From: a bacterium
GTDB lineage: Bacteria; Methylomirabilota; Methylomirabilia; CAVQYV01
Assembly (NCBI GenBank): GCA_043800755.1
Contig: JAZDMQ010000024.1
Span: 1-12,568, forward strand
Direction: 5' to 3'
Length of the DNA stretch: 12,568 nt
The notes beneath the pieces are model-generated. The model saw only the letters and a program-made list of their open reading frames with translations. It did not search any database and was not told the DNA's origin. Position numbers and translations under genes: made by a program. Shown one piece after another: positions 1 to 7,539 of this stretch. Numbering within the stretch: the first letter of the stretch is position 1; each line of letters starts with the position of its first letter.

Positions 1-467
1 GAGGCGATTTTTTTCTGGAGGGTTCGGGTGCTCCACCGTTCAATTCGGCACATCTCGGCGTAAAAGTCCCGCTGAAGGGAATCCTGAAGGTAGATGATGG
101 ATAGGAAATGGGTCCAGCTCAATTGTCTCATCAGTGCTGAGACAATCCGTTCATCGGGAAAGGCCTCGGCAAAACGAAGCATGTGCCGCAGGCTTTTTTC
201 GGAGAATCCTCTCCCATAATCCGCCTCCAATTGACGCGACAGTATAGAGACAATTGCCTCCCCATACTCGGCACGCTCTCCTTTAAGAATCTCCTCGTTG
301 ACCCGCCGACCAACCCGCCAGTAGAGCATGGTCAAGGCGGAGTTGACAAAAACGGCGACGCCTTGGCGCGTCTCTTCGATCATCCGGCGAAGGTCTTTCA
401 GAAGCAGAGGCGCAGCTTCCGGCGGAGCCGGTTTCGCTTTCTCCAAATCTCCCTTTCTGACGGTCAT
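1..467 (-). CDS. yhcG: YhcG/DUF1016-family protein (N-terminal domain of a PD-(D/E)XK nuclease-family protein), truncated by the window edge
   Basis: Manual translation from ATG 467, preceded by GGAGGGG, is open to position 1: MTVRKGDLEK...LLKDLRRMIEETRQGVAVFVNSALTMLYWRVGRRVNEEILKGERAEYGEAIVSILSRQLEADYGRGFSEKSLRHMLRFAEAFPDERIVSALMRQLSWTHFLSIIYL...QRDFYAEMCRIERWSTRTLQKKIA. It has the DUF1016 N-terminal motifs VN...LYWxxG, YG, GFS..L..M..F, LSWTH and RxFY....W. Absent from the ORF track because there is no stop codon in the window. Confidence 0.92.
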   Translation of the reverse strand, partial: MTVRKGDLEKAKPAPPEAAPLLLKDLRRMIEETRQGVAVFVNSALTMLYWRVGRRVNEEILKGERAEYGEAIVSILSRQLEADYGRGFSEKSLRHMLRFAEAFPDERIVSALMRQLSWTHFLSIIYLQDSLQRDFYAEMCRIERWSTRTLQKKIA

Positions 468-525
468 GGCGTCCCCTCCAGCAACTTGACCACATTCTCC
501 GCGCTCCGCTCTTCCATGCTTCGCA

Positions 526-560
526 CCCTCACCCCGGCCCTCTCCCAGGGGGAGAGAGAG
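526..560. repeat. Palindromic repeat copy 1 (REP/BoxC-like)
   Basis: ccctcaccccggccctctccc-agg-gggagagagag: pyrimidine tail plus a CTCTCCC/GGGAGAG stem. Confidence 0.85.
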
Positions 561-638
561 TTCTTGCAATGGTTTCTCATCACTCCCTCTCCAACAACTT
601 GACCACATTTTCTGCGATCCGCTCTTCCATGCTACGCA

Positions 639-673
639 CCCTCACCCCGGCCCTCTCCCAGTGGGAGTGGGAG
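639..673. repeat. Palindromic repeat copy 2 (REP/BoxC-like)
   Basis: ccctcaccccggccctctccc-agt-gggagtgggag. Confidence 0.85.
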
Positions 674-690
674 TTTTCGATTAGCTTGGT

Positions 691-2772
691 TCATATGCCC
701 GCCTCCAGTAACAGGCTGATATTTTCGGCAATGCGTTGCTCTAACTCGCGGGCCTCGGCGTTGAGGGTTTCCAGCTCCTCGTTCTGCTCCTCCAGCCGCT
801 CTTTGAAGTCAAAGTCCTCCTCGGCGCGGGCGGCCACGCCCACATAGCGGCCGGGGTTGAGGCTCCAGCCCTGGGCTTCGATCTCGCTTAGAGTGGCCAC
901 TTTGCACAAGCCCGGTACGTCCACGTACCGGGCACCCTCACCCCTGGCCCCTTTCCCAGAGGTAGAGGGGAGGAAGCCGTATTCGGCCAGAAGCTTGGCG
1001 CTGCCATGCGCATCTTCCGGCGTCTCGCCGCGATAGAGCCGGGCGATGTTGGCCAGGAACTCGATCTGCGCCGGGGTCCAGTCGCGGTGGGCGCGGTCTA
1101 ATTGCCTGAAAATCTGGCGCCCGTCGATGAACAGAACAGTATCTCTGTACCGAGCGCCTTCCGTTCCGCAGTCGACCCGATCTTCAGGCAAACCCTCACC
1201 CCTGGCCCCTCTCCCACAGGGAGAGGGGGTTTCCGCACCCTGAGAGGTAGAGGGGAGGTTGGCCATGATCGTTTGGAGAACAGATTCGACGGAGTCGAAG
1301 ACTTGATGATTTGGAAAACGAAGAACACGATAACCCGAGGTGCTGAGATACGCATCGCGTTTCGCGTCCTGTTCACGTCGGCTGGCGTCATCGTGCACAC
1401 CGCCACCCAGTTCAACGACCAAGCCGTACTCCGGGCAGAAGAAATCAACGATGTAATCCCCTATCTGATGTTGGCGACGGAACCTGAGTCCAGCCAGTTT
1501 CCGGTCACGCAGCAAATTCCACAAGAGATCCTCGGCGGGGGTCTGATTCTTCCGGAGCTCGCGGGCCTCTTCCTTTAACCCCTGGAAGATGTAACCTCCT
1601 TTCCCGCCGGGAGAGGACTGAGGTGAGGGTGGACAAGGCGGAAGCGACGCTTTCGCCTTGTCCATGAACCATAGAGTGCAAGGCAAGATTACCGTATAGA
1701 AGAAGTTGGAGCCGACAGCAATCATCACATCAACTGCACTGCTCTGGATCAACTTCTGCCGGATCTCCAGCTCACTGGCCCGGGCATCGCTGGCAGAGTT
1801 AGCCATGACGAAGCCAGCCCGGCCCGTAGGACTCAGCGCGCTGTAGAAGACCTGAATCCAGAGATAGTTAGCATTATCCGCCTTGGGGAGGCCCAAGGGG
1901 AAGCGAGGGTCATCCTTGATCCGCTCTTTGTCCACCCGATCCACATTGAACGGAGGATTGGCCATGACGAAGTCGAATTTGCCCACGCTGCGGTGGATGT
2001 CCTCATAGTAGCTGTTTCCTTGGCGGATGTCGCCGGAGAGGCCATGAACAGCCAGGTTCATCTTGCACAGGCGGACGGTCTCCAGGGTTTTCTCCTGGCC
2101 ATAGACCATGATCTCGGCGCTCGGATTTCTCTTGTGATTCTCCACGAAGCGGGCGCTCTGGACAAACATGCCGCCTGATCCGCAGGCAGGGTCGAAGATC
2201 CGCCCATGGTAGGGCTCGATCACCTCGACGATGAGCTTCACGATGGAGGTGGGGGTGAAGAACTCCCCGCCCTTTTGCCCCTCACTCATCGCGAACTTGC
2301 CCAGGAAGTACTCATAGATCTTACCAAAGGCATCGCCCTCGATGTCCATGGGCACGGCAGCGAAGGTCTTGAGCAGGGTGAAGAGGGTGGCGTTGTCCAG
2401 GCGGGAATAGGTCTTGGGCAGGACATCTTTCAAATCTTCGTTTTCCGCCTCAATGGCCTTCATCGCCTCGTTGATGGCCTTGGCAACGTCAGCTCCCTCC
2501 GGCAAATTGAGCAGGGTGGAGAAGCGGGCCTGCGGCGGCAGGTACATGACTCCCCGGGCCTGATAGTCGTATTTCCCGACGCTGCGCCGACCGCTCCCTT
2601 GGCCCTGCAATTCCTGCTCCACCTGCGAGAACTTGTGGTCGGCATAGCGTAGAAAGATCAGGCCGAGGACCGGCACCGAGTATTCCGAGGACTTGAGCTT
2701 GGAATTGGCCCGCAGCTCATCCGCCGCGTCCCAGAGTCTCTTTTCGATCTCATTGTTATTCGCAACGGCCAT
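691..2772 (-). CDS. hsdM: Type I restriction-modification N6-adenine methyltransferase subunit M, carrying an in-frame DUF559-like insertion
   Basis: N-terminal [12 protein letters not shown]...[17 protein letters not shown], motif [10 protein letters not shown], motif IV NPPF and C-terminal [10 protein letters not shown]. Start placed at ATG 2772 (GAGG upstream) rather than TTG 2814. Confidence 0.96.
935..973. repeat. Palindromic repeat copy 3, in frame inside the hsdM C-terminal region (encodes [13 protein letters not shown])
   Basis: ccctcacccctggcccctttccc-aga-ggtagaggggagg, with the same tail and stem design as the other copies. Confidence 0.85.
1193..1229. repeat. Palindromic repeat copy 4 (encodes [12 protein letters not shown])
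   Basis: ccctcacccctggcccctctccc-aca-gggagaggggg, with a perfect CCCCTCTCCC/GGGAGAGGGG stem. Confidence 0.9.
1235..1258. repeat. Partial repeat copy 5 (internally deleted relative of copy 3)
   Basis: gcaccct-g-agaggtagaggggagg; 1243-1258 is identical to 958-973 (16 bp). Confidence 0.65.
1598..1629. repeat. Palindromic repeat copy 6, opposite orientation (encodes [11 protein letters not shown])
   Basis: cctttccc-gcc-gggagagg-actgaggtgaggg; its reverse complement ccctcacctcagtcctctccc... matches the family. Confidence 0.8.
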
Positions 2773-2814
2773 CCTGAACCTCGGTTTTCGAATGTTGTGT
2801 GGATACCCCGGCAA

Positions 2815-7194: not shown

Positions 7195-7539
7195 CTACCA
7201 CCTTCTCCCGCCGCGATCGCCGCCGCTCCCGCCGCGATCGCCGCCGGGCCGTCCGCCGCCTCCGCCGCCCCTTCGTCCGGAATCCCTCTGAGCTTCGGTC
7301 CGGGCCTCATTGACGACGATTTCCCGTCCATCGAGGTTTTGCCCGGTGAACTTGCGAATGGCCTCATCGGCCTCCTGCTGGGTCGACATCTCAACAAAAC
7401 CGAATCCCCTCGACTGTCCGGTGGAACGGTCGCTGATGAGGTTAACGGATTCCACGGTGCCAGCCTGAGAGAATAGATTCTCGAGGCTCTCCTTGGTGGT
7501 TGTATAAGACAAATTTCCCACATACAGCTTCTTCGGCAT
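7195..7539 (-). CDS. RRM-domain RNA-binding protein with a Gly/Arg-rich tail
   Basis: RNP2 LYVGNL, RNP1 RGFGFVEM, LDGREIVVNEAR and an RGG-rich C-terminus; purine-rich GGGGGA RBS upstream. Confidence 0.95.
   Translation of the reverse strand: MPKKLYVGNLSYTTTKESLENLFSQAGTVESVNLISDRSTGQSRGFGFVEMSTQQEADEAIRKFTGQNLDGREIVVNEARTEAQRDSGRRGGGGGGRPGGDRGGSGGDRGGRRW
7205..7246. repeat. Perfect 21-bp tandem duplication encoding the GGDRG-containing tail repeats
   Basis: ctcccgccgcgatcgccgccg at 7205-7225 and 7226-7246. Confidence 0.85.

Follow-up and report, generated by a model that had tools for sequence, protein, structure and literature searches.

Why should the end of a methylase gene be found three times in a row, once where it belongs and twice more behind its own stop codon? 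The question is raised by hsdM, the gene for the methylase of a restriction-modification (RM) system of Type I, in a bacterium of the phylum Methylomirabilota. The stretch of DNA analysed here (the window, 12,568 nucleotides, nt) is an entire contig (C41) of an assembly that comprises 2.43 Mb in 166 contigs. In the window, hsdM is read on the minus strand towards a gene of the DUF1016/YhcG family that is cut by the contig end, and the two extra hsdM ends, here denoted relics B and C, lie between these two genes. As argued below, the relics are ends of a different hsdM allele and are probably displaced former ends of this gene that were kept for the sake of the translation signal they contain.

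Two hsdM tail relics in front of DUF1016

A hidden Markov model (HMM) was made from the last 34 residues (the tail) of the 120 best HsdM homologues and searched in six frames of the 2.43-Mb genome. The live tail (tail A) is detected with 56.9 bits, relic B with 28.8 bits and relic C with 22.8 bits, and the next match in the genome has 8.7 bits; the two extra copies are more than a chance similarity. Both stand on the hsdM strand, where RSMEERIAENVVKLLE starts at ATG 630 and RSMEERSAENVVKLLE at ATG 517, so that the recurrence of the HsdM terminus claimed in the original prediction, which had been made from the letters alone, is borne out. The same is true of the nearly constant spacing, given that the starts at 744, 630 and 517 are 114 and 113 nt apart.

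The relics are parts of two direct repeats of 99 nt (464-562 and 577-675) that are 87% identical; Tandem Repeats Finder reports this array as 472-675, with a period of 113 nt, 1.8 copies and 90% matches. The best 85-nt window has 77 matches, in agreement with the 8 differences in 85 nt counted originally. The period and copy number would suit a simple repeat made by slippage, the copies of which would be homologous over the whole period; here homology covers 99 nt of the 113 nt, and the 14-nt stretch between the copies (563-576) is non-homologous (5 matches in 14 nt). Read on the minus strand, each unit consists of a truncated palindromic element, the junction GCG(T/A)AGC, and an ATG behind which stand the 16-17 final codons of an hsdM gene. 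The palindromic repeat that had been noticed before each copy is indeed present, but as a half-element from which one outer arm is absent.

Both copies end in a Shine-Dalgarno-like GGAG(G) with a stop codon that overlaps a new ATG, again as originally described (GAGTGATGA in the first copy and CCATGACC in the second, where the ATG is the start of DUF1016). Relic B is in frame with hsdM behind the hsdM TGA, and its own stop overlaps the next ATG (TGATG), the start of a 38-codon open reading frame (ORF) that spans the second spacer, the second half palindrome and relic C. The TGA of the 38-codon ORF (466-464) overlaps in turn the ATG of DUF1016 (467-465; ATGA). The ATG starts of both relics arise at the junction, the live tails having CTG at this place, and the frames are intact. 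In L065, L158 and G032, the place of relic C is taken by the junction of a live hsdM tail with the start of DUF1016 (L numbers denote related loci, G numbers genomes and P numbers protein homologues).

Table 1. Features in and around the repeat array of the window (strand left empty where none is assigned)
Feature	Position (nt)	Strand	Remarks
DUF1016/YhcG, N-terminal part, from ATG 467	3-467	-	Cut by contig end; Pfam DUF1016_N, 9e-44
38-codon ORF from ATG 580	464-580	-	Contains spacer 2, half palindrome 2 and relic C
Relic C, MEERSAENVVKLLEGTP + TGA	464-517	-	Tail HMM E 2e-4
Half palindromic element, copy 2	523-562		Within 38-codon ORF
Relic B, 16-codon ORF MEERIAENVVKLLERE + TGA	580-630	-	Tail HMM E 2.4e-6, genome-wide
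Half palindromic element, copy 1	636-675		Outer arm GGGGTGAGGGTG and short inner hairpin (5-7 bp)
119-nt segment (tail A, stop, spacer, half palindrome, junction)	630-748	-	Absent from consensus-type hsdM genes
Live hsdM tail A + TGA	691-744	-	Minority tail type; also in P0042 and P0006
hsdM, Type I RM methylase	691-2814	-	Pfam HsdM_N PF12161, 4e-20; N6_Mtase PF02384, 1e-75 (split); DUF559, 6e-35
Palindromic element, in frame inside hsdM	934-973		
Palindromic element flanking DUF559, in frame inside hsdM	1192-1260		
DUF559 (Vsr-like endonuclease fold), in-frame insert in N6_Mtase domain	1255-1578	-	Pfam match at residues 413-520
Palindromic element on the other side of DUF559	1593-1631		Inverted orientation

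A tail of this type is present in each of the 120 best HsdM homologues listed, and the RIAEN core is kept in 108 of them; the HMM consensus ends in ...EARELEERIAENVAKLLEGE, and ...VVKLLEGE is a common variant. The relics fit the consensus ...EARELEERIAENV(A/V)KLLEGE (family-consensus tail EERIAENVVKLLEG), whereas the resident live tail does not. Over 36 nt, relics B and C match the resident tail at 23 and 22 positions, respectively, and the live tail of L165 at 34. Among the 138 related loci with an intact hsdM end, the live tail is closer to the relic than the resident tail is in 80 cases for relic B and in 85 for relic C. Moreover, of the 8 codons for residues that tails A and B have in common, 6 show synonymous differences (counted by eye). 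The relics are, accordingly, hsdM tails of a different allele type and not decayed duplicates of the live end. A relic that is closer to a foreign live tail than to its own is found also in L016 and L097, but not in L053 and L079. When each relic is compared with the live tail of its own locus, the differences are distributed over codon positions 3, 1 and 2 as 61:37:26, which fits divergence at a time when both were coding.

Alignment with related genes shows the boundaries of an insertion. In six loci (L163, L172, L063, L083, L068 and L158), blastn aligns the hsdM body with window positions 799/800-746 (89-94%) and the next hsdM bases with positions 629-578 (81-92%), skipping 745-630. In consensus-type hsdM, the gene body (to 749) runs straight into a tail similar to relic B (from 629), and the split alignments thus indicate that window segment 748-630 is an insertion, relative to consensus hsdM, located just upstream of the old tail. 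The joined form (629>749 with GTTCC between, reading AEARELEERIAEN) is present in contigs of the public metagenome runs X1, X2 and X4, which we take to be hsdM genes of other organisms. The HsdM protein of the window shares 93% identity with P0001, a protein with the consensus tail, and 91% with P0042, where tail A is found, so that the tail type varies within one sub-lineage.

The original prediction that the relics are displaced former hsdM ends agrees with both lines of evidence, namely the 34 of 36 matches to a foreign live tail and the insertion ahead of the old tail. The accompanying idea of repeated cassette integrations fares less well: both units have one and the same truncated palindrome, joined to the tail at an identical junction, and they are therefore a single module in two copies and not two independent insertions. 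The tail parts of relics B and C are about 90% alike (our own count from the alignment), which is no nearer than either comes to live tails from other loci (90-93% identity).

Tail relics and fused tails in related loci

The tail HMM was applied, with a cut-off of at least 12 bits, to 160 related loci (80 from species-representative genomes and 80 from metagenomes) that come from many bacterial phyla and some archaea and have an hsdM of 63-89% identity (best segment). Tail relics were detected in 11 of these loci, in all 11 downstream of hsdM and on the hsdM strand, and the maximum on the opposite strand is 9.9 bits in 1.085 Mb. A twelfth extra copy of the tail, in L052, is the end of a second hsdM located upstream. 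The search thus recovers copies of the hsdM end behind variable accessory genes, as had been predicted.

The cargo between live tail and relic is diverse. It is a DUF1016 gene in L065 and L158, an internally decayed DUF1016 gene in L165, PRiA4_ORF3 in L027 and L097, and DUF6922 with AbiEii in L016; in Poribacteria, the tails enclose Gp49/HTH_37 pairs, transposase-associated genes and unknown genes, and in L079 a strong palindrome alone. The reading frame of the cargo continues into the relic in L065, L158 and L165 and terminates at the relic's stop codon. In all nine non-Poribacteria cases (the two of the window, L016, L027, L065, L079, L097, L158 and L165), the stop of the relic meets the next start; the two overlap in eight of these cases, the exception being L097 where the stop lies 6 nt before the next start. 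A Shine-Dalgarno motif together with the stop/start overlap is present in the window, L016, L027, L065, L079, L158 and L165. An NTG overlaps the stop codon of hsdM itself in 101 of the 138 loci, but this is a weak observation, given that TGA yields NTG in three cases out of four by chance, and it is not used here. The cargo loss originally proposed for the window is compatible with the decayed DUF1016 between the two tails of L165; in the window itself, there is no sign that cargo ever sat in either of the two slots.

In 96 of the 138 loci with an intact hsdM end (2 of which are too short to judge), hsdS starts within 60 nt of the hsdM end. The gap between hsdM and hsdS exceeds 60 nt in 25 loci, 9 of which contain a relic; a further 15 loci, of which 2 contain a relic, lack an hsdS for 600 nt or more. 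In four loci from Poribacteria (L029, L030, L031 and L041), hsdM is followed by short-chain dehydrogenase genes with no hsdS within ~4 kb, and these hsdM genes may be orphan methylases. In L027 (5163-7784), a single frame of 873 codons combines an HsdS domain (Methylase_S) with HsdR-type C-terminal domains (T1R_D3-like and T1RH-like_C) and is either a fusion or a collapsed locus.

The fused tails can be followed in the DUF1016 proteins, for which the 120 best homologues (P0121-P0240) of the DUF1016 protein encoded at L158:4602-5714 were collected. A match to the hsdM tail at the very C-terminus reaches at least 12 bits in 36 of these homologues and at least 8 bits in 50. The LEG[EK] end is present in 47 of the 120, and the RIAEN core is lost in 25 of these 47; among the 120 HsdM homologues, in most of which the core is kept (see above), the LEG[EK] end is found in 29, with the proviso for all these counts that the sequences are related and do not represent independent events. 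The retention of LEG[EK] alongside the loss of the core in the DUF1016 homologues indicates that the GGAG-encoding end and the stop/start overlap outlast the helix, as selection on the translation signal would give. The annotated proteins of this DUF1016/YhcG subfamily, then, include a foreign C-terminal segment, the fused HsdM tail.

Probable displacement of old gene ends and its alternatives

We consider it probable, with due reserve, that the relics are displaced hsdM ends kept as translational-coupling modules. The route that we infer would begin with DNA of another hsdM allele that pairs through the conserved hsdM 3' region as a homology anchor. The incoming piece would bring its own tail, stop codon, spacer and truncated palindromic element, and its other side would be attached by an illegitimate or out-of-register join, either at the resident tail or just upstream of it. 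The old, consensus-type hsdM 3' ends would thereby be pushed downstream, and local duplication, or crossing-over between tails out of register, could have doubled the module that consists of the half palindrome and the old tail.

The relics would persist because the end of the hsdM tail serves as the translation-initiation region of the next gene. The LLEGE codons of this hsdM family hold GGAGG a few bases before the overlapping start, with the LLEG codons spelling GGAG, so the last tail codons could double as an initiation signal; the coupled frames, from hsdM through the 16-codon and 38-codon ORFs to DUF1016, could carry ribosomes to DUF1016. Any DNA that enters between hsdM and the next gene would have to leave that gene preceded by the old tail; otherwise the gene's translation would be lost. 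On the scale of the family, such a process would place accessory genes between hsdM and hsdS, flanked by the new and the old hsdM tails, and the window looks like a nearly cargo-free local case of it.

Several observations weigh against this explanation. No public run contains half of the sampled words (the best value is 0.31), and when contigs of four runs were compared over window positions 1-1300, no listed contig bridged 556-580 (palindrome 2, spacer 2, relic B), so that these data neither support nor contradict the tandem arrangement. A relic of at least 12 bits is missing from 16 of the 25 loci with a wide hsdM-hsdS gap, so that either the process is not universal or relics decay. The identical palindrome/tail junction in both units is a poor fit to two independent illegitimate joins. 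The related loci are not independent of each other, each cargo type having its own relic boundary, and a few old events may explain many loci. Finally, the evidence is comparative throughout, the coupling at the window is predicted from sequence features, and the public runs yielded no RNA run. A joint 476>626 seen in X3 and X4 (side 30) is ambiguous, the same 30 letters fitting 513-542, and was not used.

The alternative that survives best, unlikely as it appears, is the decay of a second, tandem hsdM. A newcomer gene would have been inserted upstream, and the resident gene would then have been deleted except for the last codons needed by the next gene; this would be another form of displacement, by insertion followed by deletion and not by one recombination event. 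Such a history is in line with L052, which holds two full hsdM ends ~5 kb apart, with the long relic of L056, which covers all HMM positions 1-33 inside a 65-codon open stretch, and with the left boundaries of the relics, which differ between loci (HMM positions 1, 13, 14 and 17-22). In the window, however, the body up to 749 and the relic are continuous in consensus genes and just 119 nt separate them, no other remnant of hsdM is found between the tails, and both units share the same junction.

It is improbable that a site-specific cassette system produced the array, with the palindromes acting as attC- or att-like sites for a dedicated recombinase and the units representing emptied cassettes. 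In integrons and 3'-end islands, direct repeats of a gene end flank the inserted DNA, and imperfect palindromes accompany the cassettes; a palindrome stands directly before the relic in four loci, namely the window (twice), L079 (z -5.84), L027 (15-bp perfect stem) and L097 (11-bp stem). Unlike in integrons, no integrase or recombinase domain was detected in the eight ORFs scanned in the 12.6-kb window, the contig of which ends inside the locus. In six other loci (L016, L065, L158, L165, L053 and L056), there is no inverted repeat before the relic; the palindromes of different loci are unrelated in sequence and have no common core site; and those of the window are half-elements whose hairpins are no more stable than shuffled sequences (z +0.6). 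The variable left boundaries of the relics argue against a site-specific system as well. As a matter of speculation, the palindromes may mark the ends of incoming DNA or favour the join.

An assembly artefact is quite improbable; it would mean that strain variants of one region with palindrome and tail had been placed one behind the other, or two strains fused at the repeat, near a contig end of this metagenome-assembled genome. The array lies 464 nt from the end of its contig in an assembly of 166 contigs, and its arrangement is not bridged independently (see above). In addition, the palindromic element is very abundant in similar metagenomes, from sediment and soil, so that assembly graphs break there: the summed contig depth reaches ~1200 over the repeat (window 523-572 and 1189-1232) versus ~5-30 just upstream, and the element must accordingly be high-copy in other organisms of such communities. 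Against this stands the longest exact match between the two units, which is 27 nt and below the final k of common assemblers. Furthermore, the units differ in their flanks and are separated by an unrelated 14-nt spacer; the part from tail A through the stop and the spacer to palindrome 1 recurs in contigs of two other runs (645-817 and 642-773, each with 9 differences), and one contig spans 13-515 with 7 differences; and L079, from an unrelated genome, shows the same architecture.

A simple duplication in tandem, in which the resident hsdM end was copied locally and then drifted without any displacement, would account for the 113-nt period and for the homology of all three tails. It is very improbable in view of the many foreign live tails that are closer to the relics than the resident one is, the synonymous codon differences between tails A and B, and the continuity of gene body and relic in consensus genes. 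We give hardly any credence to functional small ORFs whose peptides mimic the C-terminal helix of HsdM and modulate HsdM-HsdS assembly: the ATG starts created at the junction and the intact frames would suit this idea, but the helix core decays in DUF1016-fused relics while the LEGE end persists, relic C has a change of I to S in the core, and a protein search with the 55-codon open stretch that includes relic C gave 17 candidates, none of which scored, a result that is uninformative at such a length.

Surroundings of the array and comparison with known systems

The assignment of the locus to the Type I RM systems is supported by the HsdM_N and N6_Mtase domains encoded in the window and by an hsdR fragment at the start of contig C68. 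The ORF caller places the hsdM start at TTG 2814, and ATG 2772 is the likely true start. The DUF1016 fragment is 72.5% identical to the DUF1016 protein of L065; a tblastn search of the assembly with DUF1016 and HsdS queries from L065 for the rest of the locus returned only this fragment and no hsdS. The hsdM genes of the taxonomic relatives are distant, with no more than 53% identity. None of the conclusions depends on the unpublished genome G030. GC content is even (0.57-0.64), with no sign in composition of a foreign origin. An Rfam scan yielded two chance-level matches only, far below the gathering scores, and a terminator scan found no terminator-like site on the minus strand between hsdM and DUF1016. 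Elsewhere in the window, between the helicase and threonine synthase genes (7205-7269), there are GC-rich short tandem repeats with periods of 21, 12, 9 and 3 that overlap a 210-codon minus-strand ORF without a Pfam match.

The DUF559 domain is inserted at the same site of HsdM in P0001, P0042 and P0039, and the combination of DUF559 and repeat looks like a mobile unit tolerated inside an HsdM loop. In L011, L012 and L014 (genomes G029, G036 and G014, of the same class), the palindromic element lies on both sides of DUF559 frames that stand alone and are in some cases interrupted by stop codons, implying that repeat and DUF559 travel together outside RM loci, too. A perfect 10-bp inverted repeat, CCCGGTACGT cc ACGTACCGGG at 911-932, adjoins the in-frame element copy at 934-973; this reading, made on the letters, places it over the conserved HsdM stretch ARYVDVPG, and it could be a target-site feature or a product of chance.

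Palindromic elements that insert in frame into genes are known from Rickettsia and among repeats similar to repetitive extragenic palindromes (REP) and miniature inverted-repeat transposable elements (MITE). The element described here resembles the Rickettsia palindromic elements in being read in frame in hsdM, at three places, and in hsdR, where a complete copy lies in the fragment on contig C68 of G000 (L002, 135-205; DNA fold z -4.85). REP/MITE-like repeats, in contrast, have many dispersed copies and a stable hairpin, whereas the element is found in this genome on 2 of 166 contigs only (five copies on C41 and one on C68), all in the RM locus, and its copies in the two units fold weakly.

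Displacement and orphan arrays are reportedly familiar from the effector loci of Rhs, contact-dependent inhibition (CDI) and type VI secretion systems (T6SS), in work attributed to Jackson in 2009 and Poole in 2011. For orphan arrays in all three kinds of loci, one study gives homology-facilitated illegitimate recombination as the proposed route: with the conserved region as the anchor, an incoming 3' end takes the place of the resident one and shifts it downstream, its orientation unchanged, and the displaced pieces are more similar to live ends from other strains than to the resident end (Kirchberger 2017, PMC5361080). The present case is alike in that the window relics lie downstream on the hsdM strand, as do those of all 11 relic loci, and are nearer to foreign live tails than to the resident tail. 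It is unlike these systems in that the displaced piece comprises 16-33 methylase codons and not a toxin tip with its immunity gene; the tails form a conserved helix, the following genes are DUF1016 or hsdS with no cognate immunity gene, the conserved part seems to be a translation-initiation signal, and the cargo consists of accessory defence-type genes or just a palindrome.

In EcoKI, hsdM and hsdS overlap by 1 nt and are translationally coupled (Roberts 2012, PMC3510504). The relics keep this very stop/start overlap with the GGAG motif before it; unlike the single intact junction of EcoKI, the junction is repeated here, is separated from the live hsdM and has become joined, in three loci, to the end of DUF1016. 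Accessory and defence genes are frequent inside Type I RM operons; that DUF1016, RhuM and GIY-YIG genes are embedded between core genes of Type I RM systems is known as well, and the available portion of the respective study contains no mention of flanking hsdM-end copies or of an hsdM tail fused to DUF1016 (Milman 2023, PMC9881135). In the literature searched, with subscription journals and supplements outside its scope, there is neither an account of how accessory genes enter Type I RM operons without silencing hsdS nor any report that relics of the hsdM end flank such genes or that the proteins of a DUF1016 subfamily end in an HsdM tail. Accessory genes between hsd genes and the coupling of hsdM with hsdS are already known; the present case would be C-terminal displacement in a Type I RM operon, with a translation signal as the part retained.

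A more tentative extension, which we regard as possible but doubtful, is that the hsdM tail is a recombinase-free docking site for defence-gene cassettes across phyla, the array of the window being an empty, repeat-expanded form. If this is the case, modules that combine cargo with an hsdM tail would pass from one Type I RM locus to another when tail copies recombine, every module would bring or keep the coupling signal so that hsdS stays expressed, and the hsdM/hsdS junction would serve generally as a platform for cassettes and as a defined hot spot of defence-gene exchange. Tail relics are a readable scar of the entry of accessory and defence genes into Type I RM operons, and a short tail HMM provides a simple sequence signature for mapping such insertions across genomes. 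The rule suggested by these scars is that the old hsdM end is retained as the ribosome entry site of the next gene.

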